A stretch of 64,000 bases of DNA from Acidobacteriaceae bacterium. Its GTDB lineage: Bacteria > Acidobacteriota > Terriglobia > Terriglobales > Acidobacteriaceae. Made by a program: the position numbers and the translations under genes. The stretch spans positions 10,160 to 74,159 of the forward strand of contig PLGM01000350.1 of assembly GCA_003139795.1 (NCBI GenBank), read 5' to 3'. The notes beneath the pieces were generated by a model, which ran no database searches, was not told where the DNA came from, and saw nothing but the letters and a program-made list of their open reading frames with translations. Positions 5,973-58,203 of the stretch are shown here, piece after piece. Each line of letters opens with the position of its first letter. Within the stretch, counting starts at the first letter, position 1.

Positions 5973-8651
5973 ATGAAGAAGTTCCTGTATGGCTTATTGT
6001 GCGTTTTGATGCTTGTGCCGGCGGCTGGGGCGCAGGAGAAGAAAGCTGGCGGCTTGCCGCCGCTGATCGATCGCGAACTGATCTTCGGCAATCCCGAGAT
6101 TGCGGCGGCGGAGCTTTCTCCGAATGGCCAGTACATTGCATTCCTGAAACCGTGGAAGGATACGCGCAATGTGTACGTGAAGGCGGTTGGGGAGCCGTTC
6201 ACCGCGGCACGGCTGCTGACGACGGAAAACAAGCGGCCGGTTCCCGGATTTCTCTGGTCGCGGGACAGCAAGTACATCCTTTACGTGAAGGACCACGATG
6301 GAGACGAGAACTACAACGTGTATGCGGTCGACCCCGCGGCCAAGCCCGAGGCGGGCGCGGATGCGCCGGTCTCGCGCGACCTGACCGGGCTGAAAGGCGT
6401 GCGGGTGTTGCTGTACGAGGTCCCGAAGAGCGACCCGGATATTGTGTACATCGGCCTGAACGACCGGGACAAGGCCTGGCACGATCTTTACAAGCTGCGC
6501 ATCTCGACGGGCGAAAAGACGCTGTTGCGCAAGAATACTGATCGAGTTACCGGCTGGAGTTTCGATCTGAAGGGCCAGTTGCGGCTGGCTACGCGCAATG
6601 CGGAAAACGGCGACACGGAGGTTCTGCGCGTGGATGCCGACAAGCTTACAGAGATCTATTCCTGCACGGTGTTCGAGACCTGCGACCCGCTGCACTTCCT
6701 TCCCGACGGCAGCCGGGTGTACATGGAGACCAACAAGGACGCGAACCTGATCTCGCTGGTGCTGTTCGATCCGGCGACGGGCAAGACGGAGGCGGTGGAA
6801 TCGGATCCGCTGGGAAAGGTGGATTTTGGCGGAGCGCTGTTCTCCGAGGCGACCGATGAACTGGTGGAGACCTGGTATTACCACGACCGCGTAAAGACCT
6901 ACTTCAAAGACAAGGCGTTCGGCGCTGACAACCACTGGCTTGAGCAGCATTTCCCTGGCCAGGAGATCAGGGTGGTTTCGCGCACGCGGGACGAGAAAAC
7001 CTGGCTAGTGACGGCGGCAAGCGACCGGGAGCCGGGGCAGACGGTGCTGTTCGACCGCAAGACCCACACGGTGACGCCGCAATACTCGATTTGGGAGAAG
7101 TTGCCGCGCCAGGACCTGGCGGAGATGAAGTCAGTGACCTACAAGTCGTCCGACGGGCTGGAGATTCCGGCCTATCTGACGCTGCCCAAGGGCGTTGAGG
7201 CGAAGAATCTGCCCACCCTGATCATTCCTCACGGCGGACCGTGGGGACGCGACAACTGGGGGTATCACCCGCTGGCGCAGTTCTTTGCCAATCGCGGCTA
7301 TGCCGTCTTGCAGCCAAACTTCCGCGGCTCGACGGGGTATGGACGGAAGTTTCTGGATGCGGGCAACCTGGAGTGGGGCCGCAAGATGCAGGACGACGTG
7401 ACCTGGGGCGTGAAGTACCTGGTTGCCGAGGGGATTGCCGATCCGAAGCGCGTGGGGATTCTGGGCGGGTCCTATGGCGGCTACGCAACGCTTGCCGGGG
7501 TTGCCTTTACTCCCGACCTGTATGCGGCGGCAGTGGACATTGTGGGGCCTTCGAATCTGATCACGCTGATGGAGTCGATTCCTCCTTACTGGGAAGCGGC
7601 CCGCAAGACGTTTGCCGTGCGCATGGGCGACGTGAGCACAGCGGAAGGGAAAGCGCTACTGGCAGAGCGGTCGCCGCTGCACTCCGCCGACAAGATCAAG
7701 ACGCCTCTGCTGGTGGCGCAGGGAGCCAACGACCCGCGGGTGAACCGGCGCGAGGCCGAGCAGATTGTGATCGCGTTGCGGGACCGGGGATTTCCGGTGG
7801 AGTATCTGCTGGCGCCGGATGAGGGCCACGGATTTGCCCGGCCGGTCAACAACCTGGCGCTGTACATGGAGTCGGAGAAGTTTCTGGCGCAGTACCTGGG
7901 AGGACGATTCCAGGAGGGCGGATCGGCGGAGTCCGTGGCTCGGTTGAAGGAAATTACGGTCGATCCCAAGACCGTGGTGCTGGCCAAGAAGGTGGATGCC
8001 GGAGCCGTGGGGCTGCCCAAGCCGGCCACCGATCTGCAGCCGGGGACTTACCATTACCAGGTGACGATCGAGATGGGCGCGCAGAAGATGAATCTCAAGG
8101 TTTCAACGGCCATTGCGGATGGCGGAGCTTCGTGGACGGCGATCGACACGATGGAAACGCCGCAGGGCACGGCGACGGACACAGCGACCATCGCCAAGTC
8201 GAGCCTGATTCTCGAGAAGCGGAGCCTGAAGCAAGGCCCTGTCGACATCGAGGTGGATTATGCGGGCGACAAAGCGGCGGGCAAGATGAGCATGAACGGA
8301 CAGGACCATCCGATCGCGGCCGACCTGGGTGGGCCGCTGTTTGCGGATGGAGCCGGCGGGGATCAGGTCATGGCAAGCCTGCCGCTTGCGGTGGGGTACA
8401 GCACCACCTTCCGCAACTTCGATGTCCAGACGCAGAAGGTGAAGCTGCTGCAGTTAAGCGTTGCCGGCATCGAAACGGTGACCGTGCCCGCGGGGACATT
8501 TGAGGTTTACCGGGTCGAAATCTCTTCCGCGGATGGAGGGGCGGACAAGAAGACGCTGTGGATAGCGAAGGATTCCCACAAAGTGGTGAAAGGCTCCGCG
8601 GTACTGGCGGCGATGGGAGGCGCCGTCATGACCCAGGAACTGACCGAGTAA
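5973..8651 (+). CDS. S9 family serine peptidase (prolyl oligopeptidase/dipeptidyl aminopeptidase-like) with extra C-terminal domain
   Basis: ATG 5973 follows AAGGAG (5951-5956). Signal peptide MKKFLYGLLCVLMLVPAAGAQ. Catalytic landmarks GGSYGG (Ser), QGANDPRV (Asp) and DEGHGF (His). About 240 aa follow the peptidase domain. Confidence 0.85.
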   Translation: MKKFLYGLLCVLMLVPAAGAQEKKAGGLPPLIDRELIFGNPEIAAAELSPNGQYIAFLKPWKDTRNVYVKAVGEPFTAARLLTTENKRPVPGFLWSRDSKYILYVKDHDGDENYNVYAVDPAAKPEAGADAPVSRDLTGLKGVRVLLYEVPKSDPDIVYIGLNDRDKAWHDLYKLRISTGEKTLLRKNTDRVTGWSFDLKGQLRLATRNAENGDTEVLRVDADKLTEIYSCTVFETCDPLHFLPDGSRVYMETNKDANLISLVLFDPATGKTEAVESDPLGKVDFGGALFSEATDELVETWYYHDRVKTYFKDKAFGADNHWLEQHFPGQEIRVVSRTRDEKTWLVTAASDREPGQTVLFDRKTHTVTPQYSIWEKLPRQDLAEMKSVTYKSSDGLEIPAYLTLPKGVEAKNLPTLIIPHGGPWGRDNWGYHPLAQFFANRGYAVLQPNFRGSTGYGRKFLDAGNLEWGRKMQDDVTWGVKYLVAEGIADPKRVGILGGSYGGYATLAGVAFTPDLYAAAVDIVGPSNLITLMESIPPYWEAARKTFAVRMGDVSTAEGKALLAERSPLHSADKIKTPLLVAQGANDPRVNRREAEQIVIALRDRGFPVEYLLAPDEGHGFARPVNNLALYMESEKFLAQYLGGRFQEGGSAESVARLKEITVDPKTVVLAKKVDAGAVGLPKPATDLQPGTYHYQVTIEMGAQKMNLKVSTAIADGGASWTAIDTMETPQGTATDTATIAKSSLILEKRSLKQGPVDIEVDYAGDKAAGKMSMNGQDHPIAADLGGPLFADGAGGDQVMASLPLAVGYSTTFRNFDVQTQKVKLLQLSVAGIETVTVPAGTFEVYRVEISSADGGADKKTLWIAKDSHKVVKGSAVLAAMGGAVMTQELTE

Positions 8652-26158: not shown

Positions 26159-26755
26159 TTGAGTCTTTTTTACAACTGGTTCTTTCCCGCGCTGTGGGCG
26201 GTTTATCTTCTCTACTGGCAGGTGGCGGCGCGAGGCGCCAAGAGCAACGAACGCCTCGAGCCGCTCGTGTCGAGGGCGGTGCGGTCAGTGGCGTTTCTTC
26301 TGGCGATAGTGCTCCTGATGGGCCACTGGCTACCCATTCCAGCGCTCTACCGGTTTTATCTTCCCGAAAACAACTGGACCGTCTGGTTCTGGATTGGCGC
26401 GGTGGTGAATGTGCTGGGACTTGGCTTCGCGGTCTGGGCGCGTGCGTATCTGGGTAGCAACTGGAGCCGCTCGGTGACCATCAAGCAGGGCCACGAACTG
26501 ATCACCGGCGGGCCGTATGGCCTGGTGCGCCACCCGATTTACACAGGTCTGCTGACCGGCTTTCTGGGGTCGGCGATCGCCATCGCGCAGGTTCGCGGAC
26601 TGGTGGCCTTTTTCCTTATCTTCGCGGTGTTGTGGTTAAAACTGCGGCTGGAGGAACGGTGGATGCGGCTGCAGTTCGGAGGAGTCTACGAGCAGTACGC
26701 GCGCCGGGTGCCTGCGCTTGTGCCGCTGCCGCTGAGCCGGGACAGCGTGTCCTAG
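26159..26755 (+). CDS. isoprenylcysteine carboxyl methyltransferase (ICMT/PEMT-like) family membrane methyltransferase
   Basis: Multi-TM protein. ELITGGPYGLVRHPIYTGLLTGFLG is the family signature. TTG start follows GGAGG. Confidence 0.8.
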   Translation: MSLFYNWFFPALWAVYLLYWQVAARGAKSNERLEPLVSRAVRSVAFLLAIVLLMGHWLPIPALYRFYLPENNWTVWFWIGAVVNVLGLGFAVWARAYLGSNWSRSVTIKQGHELITGGPYGLVRHPIYTGLLTGFLGSAIAIAQVRGLVAFFLIFAVLWLKLRLEERWMRLQFGGVYEQYARRVPALVPLPLSRDSVS

Positions 26756-26865
26756 AGCGGTTCCACAGTCACGCGCCCTGATTGGGCGTGCGAAAGGTGG
26801 CTTTGTCTTGAGGAAAAAGCCACGCGAGAGCAGTGGTTCCGGGGTACGGCGACTGTGGAACCGCT
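26756..26865. other. 110-nt nested-hairpin element at the convergent ICMT / multihaem-cytochrome junction
   Basis: Perfect 15-bp outer stem AGCGGTTCCACAGTC (26756-26770) / GACTGTGGAACCGCT (26851-26865). It encloses two inner hairpins: 26772-26790 with a 7-bp stem, and GTGGCTTT/AAAGCCAC at 26797-26823. Confidence 0.5.
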
Positions 26866-26932
26866 GTGAGGCAGCTGGTTGACCTGCCGGAGCGCGTCGC
26901 CGTTGGCAATGAGCCTTTCCGCCGGCAAAAAG

Positions 26933-26966
26933 GAGAAGCGCTGCCGCCCGAGAAGCGCTGCCGCCC
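26933..26966. repeat. perfect 17-nt tandem duplication
   Basis: GAGAAGCGCTGCCGCCC occurs twice (26933-26949, 26950-26966), 23 nt from the cytochrome gene stop. Confidence 0.9.
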
Positions 26967-26988
26967 ATGACAACCCAACCGAAGAAGA

Positions 26989-28482
26989 CTATTGAATGCC
27001 GAGGTCGGAAAGAACCTTGGGCTTGGCTTCGTCCACGGCCAGCAGGTTGTGGCAGGCGGCGCAGTCCTGGGTGATGCTGGTGCCGTCCTTGGCCACGTGG
27101 TCGCCATCGTGGCAGCGGAAGCAGCCCGGATAGCTCATGTGGCCGATGTGGTTGGGGTGGGTACCCCAGGTCACCTTCATAAAAGGAAACACGTTCTGGG
27201 TATAGAGAGACAGCAACTCATCGCCGGCGGATTTGACAAGCGCGGCTTTGGCGGCCAGGACCTCAGGATGCTGGGAGCGATAGAAGGCTTGAAGCTGCTG
27301 TGGAATCTGCGTGCTCGCTTCGGCCTCGGAGGCGTAGGTGGCATTGAGCAGCTCCAGGCCCTCCTTGTGAACCCAGGGCAGATCCGGACTGACCGCGCCT
27401 TCGGCCATGGCCCGGTTGAGCGCGTCTTCCGCGGTCACAAAGGTGTGCGCGGCGCGGTTGTGGCAATCAATGCAATCCATCACCCGCCGTTCCCCCTGGG
27501 GAACGCCGTTGCCCGCGGCGGCCGTGGCAAACGCGGTCTCCGAGCCATCCGGGTTGCGCTTCTGTACCCAGGGGATGGTGGTGCGGGTTGGGTCGGTGGC
27601 GACGTACTCGATGTGGCCCAGGTGAGTGCCGTGAATCCCGCTCAGTTGGGAGAGCGAATCCCGGCCGCCCAGGTGCAGAACCACCACCGTCTGGGTCTCG
27701 GTGTTCTTCTCATCGTCGGCAAAGCTGGACTTCACCAGGAGCTTTTCGCCGACAAACCGGGCCGGCGTGTGGCAGCCCTCGCAGATATACCGCGCGGGGC
27801 GCAGATTCTCGACCGGCGAAGGAATCGGAGTGGGATAGCGATCGAAGCTGACCTCAAGAAGCTGCCTGGTGCCGTTCACCTTGGCGGCAAAGTAGGATGC
27901 CGCGCCCGATCCGATGTGGCAGGCGACGCAGTCCACATGGGAGTGCGCGGAAATCTTGTAGGCTGTGTACTCCGGATGCATGACGTGGCAGGACTGGCCG
28001 CAAAACTGCGGGGAGTCCATGTAGGCCGAACCGCGATAGCTGGCCATGGCCACGACCAGCAGGTTGACGATAGTGGCCACCAGCACGATATCCAGGCCGT
28101 GGCGAAAGACCCGGTCGTTGAGATCGATCTTGGGGAATTCGGCGGGAATCTGCCCGGCTTTCTGGAGCTTTCTGCGGCGCACAAACACGCCCACCGGGAT
28201 CAGCGCCAATCCGGCTATGAACAGAGCGGGCAGAAGCAGGAAGAAGATGATGCCGAGGTAGGGGTTGTCATTGGGGCGGCCGAAGATCTCGACCAGCCAA
28301 TAGCCGATCATGGTCACGCCAGCGGCGCTGGTGATGGCGCCGCCTGCCAGACTGACAGGGTTGTTGCCGAAGAACAGAGCCGGGCGCACCCAGCTCTCGC
28401 GGAATTTTTGAAGCAATGGCACCTTTGTCCCCCACACTGATTGGATGGCCCGCCAGTGGGAGCGGAAACCCGATTTCGGCAC
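26989..28482 (-). CDS. membrane-anchored multihaem c-type cytochrome, NapC/NirT-like region (ImcH-like architecture)
   Basis: 497 aa with three predicted N-terminal TM helices. One CX3CH site (CGQSCH) and five CXXCH sites (CVACH, CEGCH, CIDCH, CFRCH, CAACH). GTG start. Last gene of the cytochrome cluster. Confidence 0.75.
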   Translation of the reverse strand: MPKSGFRSHWRAIQSVWGTKVPLLQKFRESWVRPALFFGNNPVSLAGGAITSAAGVTMIGYWLVEIFGRPNDNPYLGIIFFLLLPALFIAGLALIPVGVFVRRRKLQKAGQIPAEFPKIDLNDRVFRHGLDIVLVATIVNLLVVAMASYRGSAYMDSPQFCGQSCHVMHPEYTAYKISAHSHVDCVACHIGSGAASYFAAKVNGTRQLLEVSFDRYPTPIPSPVENLRPARYICEGCHTPARFVGEKLLVKSSFADDEKNTETQTVVVLHLGGRDSLSQLSGIHGTHLGHIEYVATDPTRTTIPWVQKRNPDGSETAFATAAAGNGVPQGERRVMDCIDCHNRAAHTFVTAEDALNRAMAEGAVSPDLPWVHKEGLELLNATYASEAEASTQIPQQLQAFYRSQHPEVLAAKAALVKSAGDELLSLYTQNVFPFMKVTWGTHPNHIGHMSYPGCFRCHDGDHVAKDGTSITQDCAACHNLLAVDEAKPKVLSDLGIQ

Positions 28483-28497
28483 ACTAAGGGGCTTTGG

Positions 28498-28517
28498 AGT
28501 GTTGCTAAATCAACACT
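28498..28517. other. intercistronic hairpin upstream of the multihaem cytochrome gene
   Basis: AGTGTTG-ctaaat-CAACACT: perfect 7-bp stem, 16 nt upstream of GTG 28482. Confidence 0.3.
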
Positions 28518-28598
28518 TCAAGGCTGTGATTTCGGGTACACGGATCGCAGCTTCGCTGCAGGCGGGCCTGGTTCGACTTGCCGGACCGACGATTGGGG

Positions 28599-28916
28599 CT
28601 ACTTGAGCCCGCGATAGTAAGCCACCGCGTCCTTGATCTGCTGATCGGTGAGTCCCGCGACCGGCTTCATCTTGTTCTTGCCGTTCTTGACGACGGCAGC
28701 CATCTGGTCGGCGGTAAGCTTCTGGATATCCGGATCGGAAACCGGCTTCACACCCATCATCTTGGCGATCCCCGGACTGGGGGTGCCGGCGGAGCCGTGG
28801 CAACTTTGACACTTGGCCTTGTAAGTCGCTTCGCCGCCGGATTGGGCGAGGCACACGGCGCTGGCCAGAGAAACAACAACGGCCAGGACCACCTGGGATC
28901 GAATCGTCTTTGTCAT
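28599..28916 (-). CDS. monohaem class I c-type cytochrome (copy 2)
   Basis: ATG 28916 follows AAGGAG. Signal peptide MTKTIRSQVVLAVVVSLASAVCLAQ, single CQSCH site, distal Met region GKNKMKP. Confidence 0.85.
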   Translation of the reverse strand: MTKTIRSQVVLAVVVSLASAVCLAQSGGEATYKAKCQSCHGSAGTPSPGIAKMMGVKPVSDPDIQKLTADQMAAVVKNGKNKMKPVAGLTDQQIKDAVAYYRGLK

Positions 28917-29109
28917 TGCGATACTCCTTGAGTATTTCCACGGCCAGCGCGCCTGGGGACGCGCCTGCTGGGTGGAGTTGTTCCTGCTACCCAACCCCAG
29001 GCTACAACTTGTCAGTCGCCCGGAGCAGCAATCAAGATGGCAGCCAAAGCCATCTCAAACAGATCGACGCAATTCCCTTCGCAAATCCGGGAACTGCGCC
29101 AATGGTTCC

Positions 29110-29433
29110 TCACTTGATGAGCGTGCGGAAGTAGGCCACCGCGTCCTTGATCTGCGCGTCGGTGAGTTTGCCCTTGAACGGCTGCATCTTGCCCATGCCG
29201 TTCGTGGTGGCGTCGATCATCCTGTCCTCGGCGAAATTCTTGACGTCCGGATCGGTGACCGGCTTCACCTTCAAGGCTTTGCCTGCGGTCGTGTCGGCGA
29301 GGCCGGTGGCGCCATGACAGCTTTGGCACTTGGCTTTGTAGGTCGCTTCGCCCGGCGACTGGGCAAAGCCCACGGCGCCAGCCAAAGAAACAACCACGGC
29401 CAGCACCACCTGGGATCGAATTGTCTTTGTCAT
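29110..29433 (-). CDS. monohaem class I c-type cytochrome (copy 1)
   Basis: Signal peptide MTKTIRSQVVLAVVVSLAGAVGFAQ, CQSCH, GMGKMQP. The N-terminal ~40 aa are nearly identical to copy 2. Confidence 0.85.
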   Translation of the reverse strand: MTKTIRSQVVLAVVVSLAGAVGFAQSPGEATYKAKCQSCHGATGLADTTAGKALKVKPVTDPDVKNFAEDRMIDATTNGMGKMQPFKGKLTDAQIKDAVAYFRTLIK

Positions 29434-29557
29434 TGGAATACTCCAGAGAAATTACCACGGCCAGTGTACGCTCAGGCGCCGCCGGCCGTGTACGGATTCT
29501 TCAAGAAGAACGTTTTACGCCGGTTGTGCCGGATGGAAATTCCTTGTCCTGCGGCAA

Positions 29558-29587
29558 TTCCGCCCCTCCTTTAAAGAAGGGGCGGAA
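29558..29587. other. 10-bp-stem hairpin between porin gene and first monohaem cytochrome gene
   Basis: TTCCGCCCCT (29558-29567) pairs with AGGGGCGGAA (29578-29587). No U-run follows on the minus strand. Confidence 0.5.
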
Positions 29588-29647
29588 TGGTAACACTCCC
29601 GAATCCCGTCCGCCCCGGCAATCTTCTTCAGGGACGGCGGTTTTCCC

Positions 29648-32242
29648 TCAGAACTCGTAATGCAGTCCAATGGTCACGTTATTCGCATGAAAGTTCCGGG
29701 GTGCGGTCAGACCGGAAGACGATTCGGTTAGACCGGTCTGTTCGGGCAGAGAGGTGCAAGGTACAACCGTTGACGTCAGAGACGTTGAAGTGCTGCAGTC
29801 CTGCGGGCCGGAAGGACCGCCCTCGCCGTAGCCGTAGTAATTGTATTCCGCTTTCCAAATCCATCCAGGATGGATCGTCCACGCAACATTCACAAAGGGA
29901 GACTCATACTTGGAGTCGAGCGAGCCGTTGACCGATCGCGCATCGGTGAAAAACTGATTGCCGCTCACATCGCTCATGCGATAGCCAATATTGGAGTGGA
30001 ACGATTTGACGGGGGACAGCGCGAGAGCCACCGACGCGTACTGCGTAGGAGCATCCATGAAGTCCCTGCCAAACCAGTCCGCGAGTTGGGTCGTCGACCC
30101 CCTGGAGAACACGCCTGGGCATACATTCGGCCCGCCGCTGCTGTTGGTCGAGGCAGTGCCGGGCAAAGTGGCCGAAGCGCCACTGTCAAAACAGATGTTG
30201 GTCGCCGCATACACATCGCTATAGGCGTAATTGAAATCGAACCCATAGCGCTCATTCGGCATCAGCACCGCGCCCAGGCTCACAATCCGGCTGTGATCGA
30301 CATGGTCGATCGGGCCCTCGTACGGATCATCGCCTGCTGCGACGGCGGCCCCGTTGTTGTTGGTGTTGTTGTGCCGTTCCAGGTCGTTCCAGGCGCCCGA
30401 CAGCGTCGCCCAGGGCTTTGGCCTGTACAGGGTATGCACTCTGTAGTGCCTGGTTTGCCGCGGACCGACCGGGGTGAATGCATTGTCGGCGTAGAGCGCC
30501 TCGACCGTGCCATTGACATCCCAATTGGCGGTGGGCCGCACGGCGGCGTTGAAGATTCCACCGTCTTCGTTGATGGTTACGGTTCCGTTTGACGTGGCAC
30601 CCACGGCTAATGGAACGTTATGAGGACTGCCCTGGGCGATGGTGTGCTTGCTGTGGCGATAGGTGAGCGAGAGCGTGGCGCGAGACGCGGCATCCCAGGT
30701 CCCCGTCAAGTTATTGGTCAGGAAGTTCTGGCCAAAGTAGCCCGGCAGGGGGGTGCCGATGACGCCGCTGCCTTCAAAAGTGGAGGCGCCGGCGGCGGCA
30801 GCGGTCGTGGTCAACCCACCTGCGTAGTTGATGGTTTCATTTCCCGCGGTCGCGGGCGTCGACAGAGTGGTCCCACTCGTCATGGTGGTGGTTCCCGGTT
30901 GGTGGACGCTGGAGAAGTCCACCTGTTCGGAGAGACTGAACGTCCTCATAGCCTGCCACACGAACCCATAGTCGGCGGCTACGACCTCGCGCTTTGCGGT
31001 GCCGGTGGCCGTATACGTAAGCGAGCGCGTCGTCCCATTAAGACCCTGGTAGCTGTCGTAGTAGTTGGGCAGGTTCATATTCGCTTTGGTATAGCGCAAA
31101 TCGCCATTCATCGAGACGTTCTTGATGCTGGAGCTTTGCAACCGGAAGATCTCCGTGGGATAGAGAATGCGGGTCGGCTGCGAGCGCAGGTAGTTGGTAA
31201 CCACGGCGCATGCCGCATTGATGACCGGCAGGCCACCGGCGGTTGGCGACGCCGAGAGGATGGGAGTGGCGCCTATGCTGTTTGCATTGCAGGCACTGCT
31301 GGGGTAGGGCGTCCGGCTGTCAAAATCGTCAAGGGCCGCCGGTGTTCCGTCCGCCTCTTGCACGTTGAAGTCGCCGGGGGCCATGGTAAAGTAGGAGTCC
31401 GCCTTGTAGTGGTCGATCTCCTCTTCAAAGGTCAACCTGGTGCCCTGCACGGGCTTCCAGTCGATCCCCCCCGTGAAGTCGTCGGTGCTGTTGCGCTGAT
31501 ACTCCTGGAGCACGGCATCGTACTTGGCGAATTGATAACCGCTTGGGCTCAGGCTCGGTCCCTGGAAGATGTTCTGTGAGTACCCCGCCCGAAACGTCAC
31601 CTTCGAAATCGGAAAGATCGTGAGGTTGGTGTCCGTCATGCGGCGCACCGTGTTGTACTGCACCGGCGATTGTTCCACCTGCGGCCAGGCAAACGAACCG
31701 GTTGGCGCGGCGGAGGGTCCGATGGGAATCGACTGCCCCCCGGGGATATTGGGGTTGCCCAGCAGGTCGTAGTCGAAGTACTGGCGGTCGCGGCGAAACA
31801 TTCCCGAGAACTCGTAGATCTTGCCCTTGGAGAAGTCCAGCTTGGTGAAGCTGTTCGGATCGCCGCCGAACCCGCTGCCGATAGCACTGAGCGAATCGAT
31901 AAGCGTGTTCTTCTTGCCCGGGAGCGCGCGCATTTCAAAGGTCTCGCCAAGCACGCGCGGCCCGGACTGCATATTGACCAGCGTGTCGTACATGGCCCCG
32001 CTGCCCGCGACGCCGGTTATGCGGCCACCCAGATCCACGCTCTGATGGATCGTATACCCATTCGGGGCAGCGATCTGTGCCTCCGGCGTCGGCGATGGGG
32101 TGGCGGGCGTCGGATTTTGAGCGACGGCGATGCCCGCCGTCATCAGTAAAATGACGATTCCAATGCTCCCAGCGGTGCGCTGAATCATTGCGATAGATGG
32201 CTGTTCTTTGGACAGCCGAGAAAACCAGCCTGTCTTCTTCAT
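29648..32242 (-). CDS. large outer-membrane beta-barrel protein, MtrB/MtoB/PioB-like porin partner of the decahaem cytochrome
   Basis: ~865 aa with no haem motifs. Signal peptide ...IGIVILLMTAGIAVAQ (the start may be 32242 or 32188). Amphipathic beta-strand pattern throughout, with an OMP-type C-terminus ...VTIGLHYEF. It lies immediately downstream of the decahaem gene. Confidence 0.7.
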   Translation of the reverse strand: MKKTGWFSRLSKEQPSIAMIQRTAGSIGIVILLMTAGIAVAQNPTPATPSPTPEAQIAAPNGYTIHQSVDLGGRITGVAGSGAMYDTLVNMQSGPRVLGETFEMRALPGKKNTLIDSLSAIGSGFGGDPNSFTKLDFSKGKIYEFSGMFRRDRQYFDYDLLGNPNIPGGQSIPIGPSAAPTGSFAWPQVEQSPVQYNTVRRMTDTNLTIFPISKVTFRAGYSQNIFQGPSLSPSGYQFAKYDAVLQEYQRNSTDDFTGGIDWKPVQGTRLTFEEEIDHYKADSYFTMAPGDFNVQEADGTPAALDDFDSRTPYPSSACNANSIGATPILSASPTAGGLPVINAACAVVTNYLRSQPTRILYPTEIFRLQSSSIKNVSMNGDLRYTKANMNLPNYYDSYQGLNGTTRSLTYTATGTAKREVVAADYGFVWQAMRTFSLSEQVDFSSVHQPGTTTMTSGTTLSTPATAGNETINYAGGLTTTAAAAGASTFEGSGVIGTPLPGYFGQNFLTNNLTGTWDAASRATLSLTYRHSKHTIAQGSPHNVPLAVGATSNGTVTINEDGGIFNAAVRPTANWDVNGTVEALYADNAFTPVGPRQTRHYRVHTLYRPKPWATLSGAWNDLERHNNTNNNGAAVAAGDDPYEGPIDHVDHSRIVSLGAVLMPNERYGFDFNYAYSDVYAATNICFDSGASATLPGTASTNSSGGPNVCPGVFSRGSTTQLADWFGRDFMDAPTQYASVALALSPVKSFHSNIGYRMSDVSGNQFFTDARSVNGSLDSKYESPFVNVAWTIHPGWIWKAEYNYYGYGEGGPSGPQDCSTSTSLTSTVVPCTSLPEQTGLTESSSGLTAPRNFHANNVTIGLHYEF

Positions 32243-32369
32243 ATGAAGCCTCACTTGAAAAAAACCATTGTTGCTCACATCGAAACCTTGAACTCGTGTG
32301 CCCAGTTGGTTCGGGATCCGGGCCGCGCCGTCCGATGGGCCTGGAGGGCGCGGTCGAGCTCCATGACTC

Positions 32370-33344
32370 CTACCTGAGGAACGCCGCATTCACGTTTGAC
32401 CCATGAATATAGGTGTGGCAGCTGATGCATGGCGTGATCTCCGACGATCCTGCGCTCATCGAGTGCACCGTGCCGGCGGCGACCGGGCTATGGCACTGGT
32501 TGCACAACGTGTTGATATTCGGCATGTTCAGCAGCCGGGCGTTCTGAGAACCATGCGGCGTGTGGCACCCCAGGCACCCCTCCGCCTTGACCGCGGCGTG
32601 CTCGTACACATAAGGCCCACGCACCTCCATGTGGCACTTGGTGCAGATCATATTCTGATCGGCCGTGGACTTCAGGTTGTTGTTCCCGAAGGTGCCGTGC
32701 GGGTCGTGGCAATCGGAGCACTGCACCAGGCCCTCGTTGACCTTGTGGTGGAAGGGCATACTGAACGCCGGCTTCACGTCGGTGTGGCACTGATAGCAGA
32801 GCGTCGGCTGAGGAGCCTTGAGGAGAGATTCCTCCTTGCTGCCGTGGATGTCGTGGCAGCCGATGCAGCTGACGCCGCCCTTGGCATGAGGAGAACGATC
32901 GAAGTTCGGATGCGCTCCCGCGTGGCAGCCCAGGCACTTGGCGGTCACGTCTTTGGCCGAAGCCTTGGCGGGATCGAAGATCTTGGTCACGTCCCCGCCG
33001 CCTTCAACGTGTGCGCCGCCCGGACCGTGGCAACCTTCGCAGTTCACGCCGGCCGCGCCGTGCTGTGCTGCAAGCTTGGTGTGCGGATTGTCCGCAAATT
33101 TCTTGCTCACCTCTTCATGGCAGGTAGCGCAAATGTCACCTCCCACATAGGCGCTCGGAGCCGCGTCCTTGGCCTGCGCGGCGGCCGCTTTGGCGCCAGA
33201 TTCGGCTTTGGGCCCCTGAGCGCCAAAAGCAGTGGCGCAGGCTATGCTCGCGCCCAGCATCAACATCAAACAAGCTCGCAGCCCCGGCCGCTTTCCCGGA
33301 GCCGCACCAATCGGCAATCGCGTTACAGGCCCATCACTATGCAT
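32370..33344 (-). CDS. periplasmic decahaem c-type cytochrome, MtrA/MtoA/PioA/DmsE family
   Basis: Ten CXXCH motifs (CATCH, CEGCH, CLGCH, CIGCH, CYQCH, CSDCH, CTKCH, CLGCH, CNQCH, CISCH) in ~324 aa. Signal peptide from ATG 33344. C-terminus CHTYIHGSNVNAAFLR. The size and motif spacing fit the family. Confidence 0.85.
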   Translation of the reverse strand: MHSDGPVTRLPIGAAPGKRPGLRACLMLMLGASIACATAFGAQGPKAESGAKAAAAQAKDAAPSAYVGGDICATCHEEVSKKFADNPHTKLAAQHGAAGVNCEGCHGPGGAHVEGGGDVTKIFDPAKASAKDVTAKCLGCHAGAHPNFDRSPHAKGGVSCIGCHDIHGSKEESLLKAPQPTLCYQCHTDVKPAFSMPFHHKVNEGLVQCSDCHDPHGTFGNNNLKSTADQNMICTKCHMEVRGPYVYEHAAVKAEGCLGCHTPHGSQNARLLNMPNINTLCNQCHSPVAAGTVHSMSAGSSEITPCISCHTYIHGSNVNAAFLR

Positions 33345-33541
33345 GAAAAATACCGCCTTGGATGCTCTTGTTGCATCTTCTGAAAACCACTGGGCCGGCA
33401 ATATGCCGGCCAGATATGGCAACTCCCACCTGGGAAGCGCCGCATCGAGAATCGGTTCTTCGGACCGCAATTTCCAGAAGCTGCTCTTTGTGCGGAGCAT
33501 CACTTCATGCGCGCATCCTACGTTTTATTTGCGCCGCGAAC

Positions 33542-33557
33542 GGTGACGTTCGTCACA
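33542..33557. promoter_or_regulatory. CRP/FNR-type box GGTGA-CGTTCG-TCACA upstream of the decahaem operon
   Basis: 9/10 match to TGTGA-N6-TCACA. On the minus strand a TAGGAT -10-like hexamer (33515-33520) lies 32 nt from the box centre, which is class II (-41.5) geometry. Confidence 0.5.
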
Positions 33558-33922
33558 GATAATGGAGAGACCAACTTACGGCTTCGGTTTCCTGCCCCAA
33601 TGTGACCGGGATTTCCATCGGCGCACAAGTCATTAAACGCGCTCAGGGCGATCCATAACCCTGGCGCACATGCATTTCCCTTGGGTGGGGGCAGGACCGG
33701 CTGAAATGCCGGAAAATCCCCCTTCGCAGTTCAACAGCAAAGTGGCTGTGCCGCTGTATAAGACTGATCACCTTTCTTGAATCAGGCAACGGTTGGCGGA
33801 AGTGTGGGACCTGGTCCGGCTTGGGGAGCTGCAAGCGTACTTTGGCGCTCAATCGAAGCGGGATCCAGCGCAGGCGCTTGACGCTCCACGGGGAAATCCG
33901 CAGCCTGCGTGGATTCAATTAG

Positions 33923-33940
33923 ATGTGAGGCCCATCACAT
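33923..33940. promoter_or_regulatory. perfect CRP/FNR-type palindrome ATGTGA-GGCCCA-TCACAT upstream of the Crp/Fnr gene
   Basis: 10/10 match to TGTGA-N6-TCACA, extended to 6+6. It lies 155 nt upstream of ATG 34095. Confidence 0.5.
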
Positions 33941-34094
33941 CCACGGGGGTAGCTGCTCGGGCAAACTTTGATGGAGCAAGAGCCTCTCTTCCGGGAGACG
34001 CAGGGCATTTTCCTCTCAGCTTGAGCCCTTGCGGCGTCTGCGGGGTTCAGCAGAAGGCGGTGGGGAAGGAGCTCGAACGGGGGTCGGAAGGGGC

Positions 34095-34853
34095 ATGACC
34101 ATGGCAAGCGCTGAGATCACGGCAGGAGCGCACGTGCGGCAGAAGCACCTTATCCGGCAGGTACCTGCGGGTTGTGCGGCCTGCGCCAATCGCCGCCCCG
34201 GCTGGTTCTGCTCCCTGGGCAGCTCGGTACTGGCGGATCTTGAGCTGGCCACCAGCACCATCGCCCTTCCCGCGCAAGCTCCGCTCTTCAATCAGGGCGA
34301 GGATGCGCGCTGCCTGTATCTGATCTGCGACGGCTATCTCAAGCTGACGGCCGGCCGCGTTGAGGATCGGCAGATGATCGTCCGCATCGCCGGACCCGGC
34401 TCCATGCTCGGCCTGTACGCGGTTCTCTCCCATGGTGTGTATGAGGTCTCCGCCGAGTCCTTGACCAGCGCGCAACTGCGGCCCGTGGAGCGGGACCGGT
34501 TCCTCAGCTTCCTGCGCAGCCACAAGGAGGCGCAGATGCGGGCTGTTCAGTGCATCTGTCAGGAGTACCGCTTCGCCCTGCAGGACGCCTGCCGGATCGC
34601 GCTGGCCGAGACCGTGGCCGCGCGGCTGGGAAAGCTGCTTCTGGAGCTGGCCCAACAGATTGGGGAACACCTGAACGGTGGGGACTACCGCTTCCCGCTG
34701 CTTCTGACCCACGAGGAGATGGCCTCCATGACCTGCACCACGCGGGAAACCGTAACCCGCACCCTGGGCCAGTTCCGCAAGGAGGGTTGGATTTCGATCG
34801 AAGACTCCCTGGTGACCCTTCACCAGCCGGAACGGCTGCAAACGCTGCTCTAG
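34095..34853 (+). CDS. Crp/Fnr family transcriptional regulator with N-terminal Cys motif
   Basis: cNMP-binding-like beta-roll (LFNQGEDARCLYLICDGYLKL). C-terminal HTH MTCTTRETVTRTLGQFRKEGWI. N-terminal CAACANRRPGWFC (C-x2-C-x8-C). ATG follows GGAAGGGG. Confidence 0.85.
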   Translation: MTMASAEITAGAHVRQKHLIRQVPAGCAACANRRPGWFCSLGSSVLADLELATSTIALPAQAPLFNQGEDARCLYLICDGYLKLTAGRVEDRQMIVRIAGPGSMLGLYAVLSHGVYEVSAESLTSAQLRPVERDRFLSFLRSHKEAQMRAVQCICQEYRFALQDACRIALAETVAARLGKLLLELAQQIGEHLNGGDYRFPLLLTHEEMASMTCTTRETVTRTLGQFRKEGWISIEDSLVTLHQPERLQTLL

Positions 34854-54041: not shown

Positions 54042-54057
54042 AGTGATCCCAATCACA
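54042..54057. promoter_or_regulatory. CRP/FNR-type box AGTGA-TCCCAA-TCACA upstream of the radical SAM gene
   Basis: 9/10 match to TGTGA-N6-TCACA. It lies 232 nt upstream of ATG 54282, in a 490-nt non-coding gap. Confidence 0.4.
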
Positions 54058-54281
54058 GCCTGCCCTGCGTCTGGGCTGCTCTTCTGGAGCGGAATCGTGG
54101 CGCTCCAGAGTGGTTTTCCAATTCATGGGGCCCTGCCGGATGGTTGCAAGATGGTAACCCCTCCATGGGGAAATCATCTTATCGGCAGGGTCTTAGCTTT
54201 CTTTAATAATTGGAAAATCGCTCCATCCCCGGCGCAGGACCGGCTTCAGGACCGGCCAGCCGCGATTCACGTGGAGGCCTC

Positions 54282-55502
54282 ATGGAACCGATGCACAATA
54301 TTCCCGCCCGTGGCGGGTTGAACTTCGACGAGACCCCGTTTCTGGCCATCTGGGAGGTCACCCAGTCGTGTGACCTGGCCTGCAAACATTGCCGGGCGGC
54401 CGCCCAACCGATCGCTCATCCCGATGAGTTGACGAACGCGGAGGGGAAGGCGCTGATCGACCAAATCGCCGCGATGCACGTGCCGATTTTCGTGTTTACC
54501 GGCGGGGATCCATTGAAACGAAAGGACGTATTCGAGCTGATCCGCTACGCCGCGGACAAGGGCGTGCAGGTGGCGCTGACGCCGAGCGCAACGCCGCTGC
54601 TGACGCGGGAGGCCATTTTCAAGCTGAAAGAGGCCGGTCTGGTGCGGCTGGGCATCTCGCTGGACGGCTCGACGCCGGAGATTCACGACGCGTTCCGGGG
54701 CCTTCCCGGCGCGTGGGCGCGGACCATCCAGGCCATCGAGTGGGCCAACGAGGCGGGCATTCCGATCCAGGTGCATTCCACCATCAGCCGCCATAACGCG
54801 CACGATCTGGATAACTTATGCGCCTTGTTTGAAAAGCTGGCCATCGTGATGTGGAATGTGTTTTTCCTGGTTCCGGTGGGGCGCGGACAGATCGCCGACC
54901 TGCTTTCAGGCGAGGAATTCGAGCAGGTGTTCGGCAAAATCTATGAGTTGAGCCACCGGGTGAGCTTCCAGATCAAGACCACGGAGGCCATGCACTACCG
55001 GCGTTACCTCCTCCAGCACAACCTTGAAGAGCGGAAGATGGGGCACGGAAGCGGCCACCCTCACGCCGCTGCAGCCGCCCACAAATACGAGCCCGGCGCG
55101 CCCACGGCTGACGCCAAAACGCGCACCGCGAGCTGGGCCACGCGGCGCGTGAACGACGGTAAGGGATTCATGTTCATTTCCCACGTGGGCAACGTGTATC
55201 CGAGCGGGTTTCTGCCCATCCACGCCGGCAACATCCGCGAAACCCCGCTGGCCGAAATCTACCGCGAAGCGCCCATCTTCAAGTCGTTGCGCGATACCAG
55301 CAAGCTCGAAGGCAAGTGCGGCGCCTGCGAGTACAAGGAGATCTGCGGCGGTTCCCGCGCCCGCGCCTATGCCCTCACCGGCGATCCGCTGGCCGAGGAG
55401 CCGTGCTGCATCTATCAGCCGAGGAACTGGGACCCGGAGTTAGAGCAGAAGGCCGACGCCTTCCGCCACCTGGAGCCCTCCCAGACCCTGGTCGCGCTGT
55501 AG
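54282..55502 (+). CDS. radical SAM/SPASM domain protein (AhbD/NirJ-like class)
   Basis: CDLACKHC (CX3CX2C) near the N-terminus. C-terminal SPASM Cys cluster CGACEYKEICGGSRARAY...EPCCIY. ATG follows GGAGG. Confidence 0.85.
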   Translation: MEPMHNIPARGGLNFDETPFLAIWEVTQSCDLACKHCRAAAQPIAHPDELTNAEGKALIDQIAAMHVPIFVFTGGDPLKRKDVFELIRYAADKGVQVALTPSATPLLTREAIFKLKEAGLVRLGISLDGSTPEIHDAFRGLPGAWARTIQAIEWANEAGIPIQVHSTISRHNAHDLDNLCALFEKLAIVMWNVFFLVPVGRGQIADLLSGEEFEQVFGKIYELSHRVSFQIKTTEAMHYRRYLLQHNLEERKMGHGSGHPHAAAAAHKYEPGAPTADAKTRTASWATRRVNDGKGFMFISHVGNVYPSGFLPIHAGNIRETPLAEIYREAPIFKSLRDTSKLEGKCGACEYKEICGGSRARAYALTGDPLAEEPCCIYQPRNWDPELEQKADAFRHLEPSQTLVAL

Positions 55503-55618: not shown

Positions 55619-56662
55619 TCAGTGGCTGGTGGAAGTCAGATCGACTTTGCCGCGGAATCTGGTGTAAACGAAGACGACGTAACCGACGGCCAGCGTCATT
55701 CCGAAAGCCCACCACACCAGTCCCACTGCCAGCGTATGCGGCCCGGAAATCGCCTTGGCCATTGTGATGTCGCGCTCAACACCTGTCGAGGCGGGCAGCA
55801 GCGTGGGATAAAGGCCCCAGCAGGCTCCGGCCAGCATGAAGAAGAGATAGAGGCAGGATGAGAGGAAGGCCTTGACGGGCTGGGCGTTTCTGTTGAAGAG
55901 CCAGATGCCGGCCAGGGAGGCGACGACGCCCACGGGAACGACGACTGTAAACGGGTAGTTGAAGTAGTTGTCCAGGCTGGCCGGGCGCACGTGGATGGTG
56001 GCGCCGAGGCTGATGACGGTGAGAACCGCCAACTGGATGCAAACCGGGCCGACGATGCGGCGGGCGCGGTCGGCGAGCTCGCCAGAGGTCTTGATGGTGA
56101 GCCAGAGAGCTCCGTGGAGCGTGAGCGCGACCAGGGCGACGATGCCGCCGATAACCGTGTACCAGTCGAGAATGCCGGGATGGGGACCGGTCTCCCAGTT
56201 GGTCCACAAGGGCAGGAAGAAGTAGCCGTCGGCCTGGAGAGGAACGCCGCGCAGGACGTTGGCGAGGGCGGCTCCGAAGAAGACGGCGAGCAGGGCGCTG
56301 GAGAGGCCGAAGACGCCGTCGAGCAGCGCGCGCCATACGCCTACGTCGATGTGGTTGCGAAGCTCGACGCTGATGCCGCGCAGGACCAGGAGCCAGAGCA
56401 CGATCATGAGAGGCAGATAGAAGCCGCTGAAGGCCGAGGCGTAGAGGAGCGGAAAGGCGAAGTAGAGGGTGCCGCCGCCGGCCAGCAGCCAGACTTCGTT
56501 GCCGTCCCAGACTGGGCCGATGCTGGCGAGGGTAACGCGGCGGTCGGCTTCGGTGCGAACGAGGAAGAGATGGAGTACGCCGACGCCCAGGTCGAAGCCG
56601 TCGAGCACGACGTAGGCGACGATCATTACGGCGACCAGCCAGAACCAGATGAAACCCATCAT
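55619..56662 (-). CDS. cydB: cytochrome bd ubiquinol oxidase subunit II
   Basis: MMGFIWFWLVAVMIVAYVVLDGFDLGVGVLHLF...GPVWDGNEVWLL is canonical CydB. ATG follows AAGGAG. Confidence 0.9.
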   Translation of the reverse strand: MMGFIWFWLVAVMIVAYVVLDGFDLGVGVLHLFLVRTEADRRVTLASIGPVWDGNEVWLLAGGGTLYFAFPLLYASAFSGFYLPLMIVLWLLVLRGISVELRNHIDVGVWRALLDGVFGLSSALLAVFFGAALANVLRGVPLQADGYFFLPLWTNWETGPHPGILDWYTVIGGIVALVALTLHGALWLTIKTSGELADRARRIVGPVCIQLAVLTVISLGATIHVRPASLDNYFNYPFTVVVPVGVVASLAGIWLFNRNAQPVKAFLSSCLYLFFMLAGACWGLYPTLLPASTGVERDITMAKAISGPHTLAVGLVWWAFGMTLAVGYVVFVYTRFRGKVDLTSTSH

Positions 56663-56708
56663 GGGAAACTCCTTTTTCTTCAGGCCTGCAAAGGGAGGGC
56701 GGTGATTG

Positions 56709-58055
<1,347 letters not shown>

Positions 58056-58185: not shown

Positions 58186-58203
58186 ATGTGATTTAAATCA
58201 CAT
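58186..58203. promoter_or_regulatory. perfect 18-bp palindrome ATGTGATTTAAATCACAT (CRP/FNR-type box) between cydA and hemY
   Basis: 10/10 match to TGTGA-N6-TCACA. ~139 nt from the cydA start and ~134 nt from the hemY start. TATGAT (58222-58227) lies 30 nt from the box centre on the hemY side. Confidence 0.5.

Follow-up and report, generated by a model that had tools for sequence, protein, structure and literature searches.

The genes described here lie in a stretch of 64,000 nucleotides from an Acidobacteriaceae bacterium (assembly GCA_003139795.1, contig PLGM01000350.1, positions 10,160 to 74,159 of the forward strand), which is called the window throughout and was analysed at its full length. 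On its minus strand, between 26989 and 33344, the list of open reading frames and a motif scan reveal five co-directional genes, four of them for c-type cytochromes and one for a large haem-free barrel protein. An earlier note, made from the letters of the DNA alone, had read this cluster as a porin-cytochrome system for extracellular electron transfer, and its observation of five co-directional genes is confirmed gene for gene. The core of that reading, namely an MtrA-family decahaem cytochrome, a large barrel devoid of a plug, small cytochromes and an ImcH-type inner-membrane cytochrome, is supported by hidden Markov models (HMMs), fold search and synteny. In the order in which they are read, the genes are:

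32370..33344, minus strand: decahaem c-type cytochrome of the MtrA/MtoA/PioA/DmsE family, 324 amino acids (TIGR03508; match to 6r2q_A)
29648..32242, minus strand: haem-free outer-membrane beta-barrel of an unannotated family, predicted to form the sheath of the decahaem cytochrome (fold model, Foldseek, gene neighbourhood)
29110..29433, minus strand: monohaem class-I cytochrome c, copy 1, putative periplasmic shuttle, 107 amino acids, one CXXCH (PF13442, E-value 1.5e-14)
28599..28916, minus strand: monohaem class-I cytochrome c, copy 2, tandem duplicate, 105 amino acids, one CXXCH
26989..28482, minus strand: hexahaem inner-membrane cytochrome of the ImcH family, putative quinol dehydrogenase (haem motifs, transmembrane segments, NrfH-like region)

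The cluster is flanked by genes for a methyltransferase, RNase II, a DUF4440 protein and MnmG, and in the whole 64-kb window the CXXCH motif is found in none of the other open reading frames. Since the family matches reach E-values of 5.9e-77 (TIGR03508) and 2e-15 (NrfH), the likeness of the cluster to known systems is not due to chance.

The proteins of the cluster

The decahaem cytochrome is the exported protein of 324 residues that the earlier note had described, with an N-terminal hydrophobic signal sequence and exactly ten CXXCH motifs; it contains 24 histidines, a sufficient number for bis-His ligation, and ends in ...CHTYIHGSNVNAAFLR. On TIGR03508, the model proposed for checking its family, its score is 258.6 bits (cutoff 192.2, E-value 5.9e-77), with profile positions 1–257 of 258 covered, and its residues 41–292 match MtrA of Shewanella baltica (6r2q chain A) with an E-value of 1.5e-37. 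On NF041028, the model for GSU2203/OmcK, it reaches 213 bits and stays under the cutoff of 325. Profile and sequence comparison establish it as a member of the MtrA family. The ATG at 33344 is regarded as the real start because orthologues contain in-frame stops upstream of it, and the same stops rule out a longer open reading frame of 377 amino acids, which would begin at GTG 33503 and provide a PioA-like N-terminal extension.

The gene directly downstream encodes the barrel protein. It had been described as an exported, haem-free barrel of about 865 residues ending in ...IGLHYEF, and an N-terminal hydrophobic signal sequence, zero CXXCH motifs and this C-terminus, which constitutes a Y-x-F beta-signal, are indeed present, whereas the length is 864 amino acids from the first ATG and 846 from the second. 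An AlphaFold2 model built on an alignment of 55 sequences has a mean predicted local distance difference test score (pLDDT) of 77.8, with most strand blocks above 90, and a predicted template modelling score of 0.73. Long antiparallel strands make up almost all of it, the parts of low confidence being long loops, and its approximately 30 DSSP strand elements are read as 26–30 barrel strands. As the first strand begins at residue 45, there is no N-terminal plug in the model. Searched against the PDB with Foldseek, the model matches MtrB best (6r2q_B, E-value 4.3e-15, TM-score 0.70 normalised on MtrB), followed by TonB-dependent receptors with E-values of 8e-10 or above and TM-scores of at most 0.46. 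The plugged TonB-dependent receptor, which the earlier note had envisaged as the contrary outcome, is ruled out by the missing plug and by the distance at which such receptors score below MtrB.

More than 2051 close relatives of the barrel exist, and every listed source name is "hypothetical protein". Clustered at 50% identity the family comprises 1038 clusters at an E-value of 1e-3 or lower, 255 of them at 1e-30 or lower, and the cluster names of ten distant relatives are limited to "hypothetical protein" or an opacity-protein-like label. A recurrent faint relation leads to the GSU2204 family (NF041027), which 32 of 55 diverse family members match weakly and locally (best E-value 5.1e-10); ten relatives scanned singly obtained 17–37 bits against a cutoff of 350, over profile positions of about 497–575 and in one case from about 361. 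The barrel of the window, which contains no CXXCH, does not itself match NF041027. Furthermore, among 55–67 diverse members two cysteines, C666 and C690 (numbering of the 846-residue protein, 29648-32188), are invariant and two others, C300 and C327, nearly so. All four are located in or beside long loops of low confidence, the C666/C690 pair near the segment in which the relatives weakly match the GSU2204 family, and they may form disulfides or a metal site. One member of the family, a protein of 894 amino acids (P0308), carries a monohaem cytochrome c domain at its C-terminus (CARCH ... MPAHG), which reflects either a fusion of barrel and shuttle in nature or a read-through in gene calling.

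The two monohaem cytochromes, which had been put at about 106 amino acids each, have one CXXCH each as claimed and lengths of 107 and 105 residues. Both belong to PF13442 and are 64% identical, and their genes constitute a tandem DNA duplication with a period of 517 bp (28604-28947 and 29118-29464, DNA identity 71–84%). Since many orthologous loci have a single copy, the duplication is lineage-specific. The nearest PDB entries to copy 1 are the Kuenenia cytochrome c-552 Ks_3357 and then cytochromes c6. In 105 of 105 relatives the CXXCH and Met83 are invariant, and 84 of the 105 have a single histidine in the mature part, as have the mature proteins of the window, which do not show the bis-His arrangement of MtoD. 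From the invariant Met83 and the single histidine we infer His/Met ligation of both cytochromes. The earlier note had counted Met-ligated shuttles among the differences from the Mto system. This is correct with respect to MtoD, but the mto cluster of Sideroxydans encodes a second monohaem cytochrome, PmcA, which is likewise His/Met-ligated, has a potential of −143 mV, and is, instead of MtoD, the demonstrated partner of MtoA and of the inner-membrane ImoA (PMC13390432). PmcA and the cytochromes of the window are alike in ligation type. Because a His/Met cytochrome can operate at −143 mV, Met ligation is uninformative as to potential or direction of electron flow, and PmcA rules out the idea that such ligation marks a high-potential shuttle for inward flow.

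The last gene encodes a protein of 497 amino acids if read from GTG 28482 and of 477 amino acids if read from GTG 28422. The second start is probably the true one as homologues have 475–482 residues. Thus, of the 497 residues, three transmembrane helices and six haem sites previously claimed, the helices and haems stand and the length probably has to be corrected to 477. In the numbering of the longer form a CGQSCH is located at position 161 and CXXCH motifs at 185, 234, 337, 454 and 474, so that five CXXCH and one CX3CH make six haem sites; from the probable start the positions are 141/165/214/317/434/454. The transmembrane segments at about 41–63, 78–100 and 129–151 have Kyte-Doolittle values of 0.97, 2.69 and 1.63, two being strong and the first weak, as is also the first segment of Geobacter GSU3259 (PMC4251993). 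Residues 133–239 are the sole part related to NrfH/NapC (TIGR03153, E-value 2e-15; PF03264, E-value 2e-11), and the match to NrfH (2j7a_C, E-value 4.7e-8) spans the haem-1 site, which reads CGQSCHVM here and CTSCHIM in NrfH. The ImcH family is defined by three N-terminal transmembrane segments and a membrane-adjacent CX3CH followed by five to nine CXXCH (PMC6295460, PMC4251993). Published motif positions are 132/156/205/311/428/448/486 for GSU3259 and 142/166/214/317/434/454 for ACP_0476 of Acidobacterium capsulatum (PMC6295460, Table S3). The spacing is therefore 24/49/103/117/20 in the protein of the window and 24/49/106/117/20 in GSU3259, and after an offset of 20 residues the transmembrane positions match those listed for ACP_0476. 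Among 63 extracted orthologues most have the same motif positions, about a third contain an insertion of some ten residues between haems 2 and 3, and nearly all keep the pattern of one CX3CH and five CXXCH, two lacking one motif. Judged by the published homologue table, the protein belongs to the six-haem subgroup of ImcH together with those of Anaeromyxobacter and Geothrix. With three transmembrane segments, six haems and about 477 residues it differs from proteins of the CymA/ImoA/NapC/NirT type, which have one segment, four haems and about 190–200 residues, and the earlier proposal of an ImcH-like cytochrome in place of tetrahaem CymA agrees with both architecture and motif spacing. As to function, ImcH has been implicated in quinol oxidation and described as needed for electron acceptors above about −0.1 V (PMC4251993, PMC5322298).

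Conservation and candidate regulation of the cluster

Relatives of the barrel were sought in one genome per GTDB species and found in at least 577 of these; the counts of loci given here refer to the 80 best of them. All 80 are Acidobacteriaceae, in keeping with the acidobacterial host suspected in the earlier note, and include Terracidiphilus, Granulicella, Silvibacterium bohemicum S15 and Bryocella elongata. As the best loci have 85% barrel identity, the window itself is Terracidiphilus-like. The decahaem gene adjoins the barrel gene in 77 of the 80 loci as it does in the window, and the gene order is constant, with a monohaem cytochrome in 75, ImcH in 69 and a divergent Crp/Fnr-type regulator in 53; genes that are absent are mostly missing at contig ends. 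In a subgroup of Acidobacteriaceae, which comprises L017 (10674-15838) and at least ten others (L032, L036, L044, L045, L049, L050, L052, L055, L065 and L068), about 5 kb are inserted between the monohaem gene and imcH. The insert encodes a CbcL-like protein (multihaem plus cytochrome b561/HydC), a monohaem cytochrome c, a multihaem protein of 396 residues and a cytochrome b of 299 residues, and operons with the insert carry both Geobacter-type quinol oxidase families. In L017 the gene immediately upstream of the cluster (6019-6564) encodes a hydrogenase maturation protease of HycI type, which hints at a hydrogenase neighbouring the conduit there.

Four distant loci with 28–30% identity were also examined, and in each the barrel is accompanied by a multihaem cytochrome resembling MtrA. 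Three of the four add a cytochrome of quinol-dehydrogenase type, which is either NrfH-like or a combination of CbcL-like and ImcH-like proteins. The first (L081) contains a decahaem-like cytochrome, the barrel, a monohaem cytochrome c and an NrfH-type protein of 204 residues, which is the size of NrfH and CymA. Another (L082), together with a second contig (the one that carries P0372), encodes Crp, a cNMP-binding protein, decahaem-like cytochrome, barrel, CbcL-like and ImcH-like proteins and an AhbD-like radical SAM protein. In L083 (1-2728) the decahaem-barrel pair lies beside a Rieske/cytochrome b complex and a multihaem cytochrome of 446 residues, and no NrfH- or ImcH-type protein is encoded; the Rieske/cytochrome b complex is another route to the quinone pool. 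Given these gene sets, the invariant core consists of decahaem cytochrome and barrel, and the module on the quinone side (NrfH-, CbcL- or ImcH-type) is interchangeable, as would be expected of an electron conduit that spans the envelope.

Sequence elements around the cluster suggest control by oxygen. The pattern TGTGAY-N5-TCAC, which is of the TGTGA-N6-TCAC type, has five matches at four sites in the window where 0.09 would be expected. The regulator, the boxes and the genes next to them are:

34029..34853, plus strand: divergent Crp/Fnr-family regulator, candidate low-oxygen sensor (PF00027 cNMP_binding; PF13545/PF00325 helix-turn-helix)
33925..33939, minus strand: CRP/FNR-type box TGTGATGGGCCTCAC, proximal to the regulator, at the matching position in almost all of 50 orthologous intergenic regions
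33543..33557, minus strand: CRP/FNR-type box TGTGACGAACGTCAC, located some 200 bp upstream of the ATG of the decahaem gene (pattern match, positions in orthologues)
33489..33504, minus strand: third conserved element AGTGATGCTCCGCACA in the non-coding leader, about 155 bp upstream in most orthologous loci
54043..54057, plus strand: box upstream of the AhbD-like radical SAM/SPASM gene (54210-55502), a putative regulon member (pattern match)
55619-58055, minus strand: cydAB (Cyt_bd_oxida_I and II)
58187..58202, no strand assigned: perfect palindromic box TGTGATTTAAATCACA between cydAB and the gene for a HemY-type oxidase, both putative regulon members (pattern match)
58329-59819, plus strand: HemY-type oxidase (TIGR00562, 289 bits)

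The decahaem-side box is found about 200–215 bp upstream in most of the 50 loci, about 135–150 bp upstream in a few and about 350 bp upstream in one, and the leader between box and gene is regarded as non-coding because orthologues have in-frame stops. The product of 54210-55502 scores 487 bits on TIGR04053 (cutoff 395) and 363 bits on the AhbD model. As the same box precedes cytochrome bd, the HemY-type oxidase and the AhbD-like enzyme of oxygen-independent haem synthesis, we infer an FNR-like low-oxygen regulon that would comprise the conduit, a high-affinity bd oxidase and haem supply, which suggests that the operon is induced at low oxygen. At least 40 of 51 orthologues of the regulator retain its cysteines Cys49-x2-Cys52-x8-Cys61, Cys95/100, 175, 177, 188 and 236. 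The arrangement differs from that of E. coli FNR. From the conserved cysteines, binding of a cluster and sensing of oxygen are presumed, and the protein may function as a redox or Fe-S sensor. In the distant locus L082 (12909-14177) and on the P0372 contig an AhbD-like gene follows directly after imcH; the haem b synthase model gives it 472 bits, and it shares 37% identity with the 54210-55502 gene of the window, so the conduit seems to be accompanied by oxygen-independent haem synthesis.

Two further elements concern the transcript itself:

29557..29588, minus strand: near-perfect hairpin (inverted repeat of 16+16 nucleotides without spacer) located after the barrel stop codon and before the first monohaem gene, with no T-run behind it
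26936..26949, minus strand: terminator-like hairpin with T-run about 40 nucleotides past the last gene (consensus scan only)

The first may be an RNA stabiliser or attenuator and may give the two halves of the operon different expression levels. The scan that found the second is near background, with 9 terminators found and 6.6 expected. A scan for sigma-70 promoters over 26500-34500 gave no match, and an Rfam search of the whole window found no family.

A proposed conduit and the direction of electron flow

How could these proteins work together? The operon is proposed to encode an electron conduit of the Mtr/Mto/Pio type that connects the quinone pool with the cell surface, to which we assign a probability of roughly 0.75. 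ImcH would exchange electrons with the menaquinone pool, its haem 1 being placed in an NrfH-like CX3CH-x-M site beside the third transmembrane helix. The monohaem cytochromes would then ferry electrons across the periplasm, by analogy to PmcA between ImoA and MtoA in Sideroxydans, and the decahaem cytochrome, threaded through the barrel, would convey them through the outer membrane to or from an extracellular partner. Expression would be governed by the neighbouring Crp/Fnr-type regulator acting at the conserved TGTGA-N6-TCAC boxes.

Several findings weigh against this reading. Neither TIGR03509, which the earlier note had suggested for verifying its MtrB/PioB family, nor any other NCBIfam or Pfam model matches the barrel at an E-value of 0.1 or lower. 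A phmmer search of PDB sequences gave no match at an E-value of 10 or lower, and a profile of 67 family sequences did not find MtrB in the PDB even at that threshold, so that no sequence bridge leads from the barrel family to MtrB. Membership of the barrel in the MtrB/PioB family cannot be detected by sequence. Its likeness to MtrB comes from the predicted monomer fold and from synteny, not from family membership; filing it under TIGR03509 is not warranted, and it is properly described as MtrB-like in predicted fold and gene context. As to the inner-membrane cytochrome, an AlphaFold2 model based on a shallow alignment (86–93% identical sequences) has a pLDDT of 40.2 and is unusable, and the ImcH assignment comes from architecture and published motif positions rather than from an alignment with GSU3259. 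Moreover, with intergenic gaps of 100–200 bp and the hairpin 3' of the barrel gene, a single transcript can only be presumed. Finally, Mto-like gene content and the presumed induction at low oxygen fit microaerobic electron uptake as well, which leads to the question of direction.

The earlier note held that the direction of electron flow is not fixed by the sequence, and this is still so. Provided that the operon is a conduit, outward flow is considered the most likely direction, at odds a little better than even: with oxygen scarce in acidic soil or peat, the cell would use Fe(III), Mn(IV) or humic quinones as a sink for its respiratory electrons. Outward flow is favoured because ImcH has been implicated only in quinol oxidation, because some relatives pair ImcH with CbcL, a Geobacter quinol-oxidase family proposed for outward transfer, because the operon appears to be co-regulated with cytochrome bd, and because the hosts live organoheterotrophically and Fe(III) reduction is cited for Acidobacterium capsulatum (PMC6295460). 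Alternatively, electrons could be taken up as by MtoAB-PmcA-ImoA or PioAB and flow from extracellular Fe(II) or reduced humics, oxidised at the surface, through decahaem and monohaem cytochromes to ImcH and the quinone pool, or else to a terminal oxidase, which seems unlikely but constitutes a serious rival. As in MtoAB and PioAB the outer-membrane module has two components and no MtrC-like gene is found in the window; decahaem cytochrome, barrel, monohaem cytochrome c and a cytochrome related to NapC/NirT mirror the mto cluster, the more so in the distant locus with its 204-residue protein of NrfH/CymA size; and microaerobic Fe(II) oxidisers likewise work at low oxygen. However, the oxidase that appears to be co-regulated is a cytochrome bd, which is fed by quinol and not by cytochrome c, and electron transfer from Fe(II) to menaquinone is energetically uphill. 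The carriers are organoheterotrophic Acidobacteriaceae, some of whose relatives are cited as Fe(III) reducers (PMC6295460), and Fe(III) reducers are the only organisms in which ImcH homologues are known to date, quinol oxidation being the only process in which these are implicated (PMC6295460, PMC4251993). The His/Met monohaem partners used by the Mto uptake pathway (PMC13390432) would fit the inward direction.

Two other explanations were considered. Instead of serving the respiration of minerals or humics, the decahaem-barrel pair could feed a surface or extracellular reductase that is not a cytochrome, as DmsEF feeds DmsAB in Shewanella, or could reduce a soluble substrate in the periplasm or close to the outer membrane. 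TIGR03508 is indeed named for DmsE and covers conduits with differing terminal partners, and no surface cytochrome gene is nearby, but no gene for a molybdoenzyme or reductase is present in or beside the operon, nor in the 80 syntenic and four distant loci, and the extra genes in the four distant clusters are all for cytochromes or haem synthesis, which makes this explanation very improbable. It could also be imagined that the barrel serves ordinary transport as a porin, or is some unrelated protein of the outer membrane, and happens to be encoded beside periplasmic cytochromes, in which case electrons would not cross the outer membrane at all. The missing matches to MtrB/PioB models and PDB sequences would agree with this, and large barrels tend to match each other in fold searches. 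Against it stand the pairing of barrel and decahaem cytochrome in 77 of 80 close and all four distant loci, the E-value of MtrB, which is five orders of magnitude ahead of that of any other PDB barrel (TM-score 0.70 versus at most 0.46), the barrel-family member fused to a cytochrome c domain and the recurrent weak link of barrel relatives to the GSU2204 family, so that this possibility, too, has hardly any probability left, if anything somewhat less than that of a non-cytochrome reductase.

Relation to known systems and significance

The proposed conduit can be compared with systems in which the components are known. In Sideroxydans lithotrophicus ES-1 the MtoAB-MtoD/PmcA-ImoA(CymA) pathway likewise has an MtrA-family decahaem cytochrome, a barrel and no surface decahaem cytochrome, and its cluster also encodes two small monohaem cytochromes, of which the His/Met-ligated PmcA shuttles between the decahaem and the NapC/NirT-type cytochrome. 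The barrel of the window is about 200 residues longer than its Mto counterpart, in agreement with the unusually large porin noted earlier, and is missed by the MtrB/PioB models; the inner-membrane part is an ImcH-type hexahaem protein with three transmembrane segments instead of a tetrahaem protein with one; neither monohaem cytochrome is bis-His-ligated like MtoD; and the host is an organoheterotrophic acidobacterium. In Shewanella MtrCAB (6R2Q), MtrA matches the decahaem cytochrome (E-value 1.5e-37) and MtrB is the best structural match to the barrel model, with about 10% sequence identity and 26 strands, as reported for MtrB, PioB and MtoB (PMC10654088), compared with about 26–30 DSSP strand elements in the model. 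Unlike MtrCAB, the system appears to employ a quinol dehydrogenase of ImcH type and not CymA, and no gene for a surface cytochrome of the MtrC/OmcA type is found within the 64-kb window, which argues for a two-component outer-membrane module like MtoAB and PioAB.

Geobacter sulfurreducens ImcH (GSU3259) shares with the protein of the window the three N-terminal transmembrane segments, the CX3CH by the third of them, the NapC/NirT-like region and a near-identical motif spacing, and the six-haem homologues of Anaeromyxobacter and Geothrix and ACP_0476 share this architecture; the seventh, C-terminal haem of Geobacter ImcH is missing. In Geobacter imcH is monocistronic (PMC4251993), whereas here it closes an operon with an MtrA-like/barrel pair, and a survey of 2018 found no mtrAB or mtoAB adjoining any imcH (PMC6295460). 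A decahaem cytochrome beside a large barrel is also seen in Geobacter OmcK (GSU2203) and GSU2204, the genes of which are induced by iron oxides (PMC4070692), and the GSU2204 family is annotated as an MtrB/PioB-type barrel and partner of OmcK (PMC13188914). All scores obtained here are far under the respective cutoffs of 325 and 350, and proteins of the GSU2204 family contain CXXCH and often selenocysteine, whereas the barrel of the window has no haem site. More recently, clusters of porin and multihaem cytochrome genes named EET1 and EET2 were described in Terriglobales and Bryobacterales from peat (Fiorito et al., 2026, bioRxiv 10.64898/2026.05.27.727921). They are syntenic, have low identity to Mtr and Omc proteins, have been modelled as conduits similar to Mtr and show expression at peat depth. 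The main text of that study does not give their composition gene by gene and makes no mention of ImcH, monohaem shuttles or FNR-type boxes, and the operon may correspond to EET1, to EET2 or to neither.

Papers of 2013 (PMC3669403) and 2018 (PMC5900883, with S. bohemicum among the carriers) described MtrA-like genes in Acidobacteria, and others of 2014 (PMC4251993) and 2018 (PMC6295460) described ImcH homologues in Acidobacteriaceae. As both had thus been reported separately, the novelty is smaller than the earlier note implied, and the operon of this soil acidobacterium is not a new kind of machine but a divergent form of the Mtr/Mto porin-cytochrome systems, which is very widespread and has escaped annotation. 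Within the literature examined, four aspects appear not to have been described: the barrel as a separate family, unannotated and missed by family HMMs; the linkage of imcH to an Mtr-type module, which contradicts the statement of 2018 that there is no such adjacency (PMC6295460); the swapping of quinone-side modules across the barrel family; and the regulon with FNR-type boxes. Since family HMMs miss the barrel component entirely, HMM-based surveys of iron genes may undercount such systems.

Acidobacteriaceae dominate acidic soils and peat, and the question of how they survive anoxia and of who reduces iron and humic matter there bears on the ratio of CO2 to CH4 from peat. The operon provides a testable candidate that is carried by hundreds of species, among them the culturable Silvibacterium bohemicum S15 (L043); Bryocella elongata (L076) has the decahaem-barrel pair as well. 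A more far-reaching proposal, which we put forward tentatively as possible rather than probable, is that the operon constitutes the principal low-oxygen respiratory outlet of the Acidobacteriaceae, an FNR-controlled path from ImcH via monohaem cytochromes to an MtrA-like wire in a new barrel family. The discoverers of ImcH named its redox partners as the key missing information (PMC4251993), and if the proposal were true, the operon would be the first natural gene linkage to name these long-sought partners. In that case some of the most abundant bacteria of soil and peat could respire Fe(III), Mn(IV) and humic matter at acidic pH.

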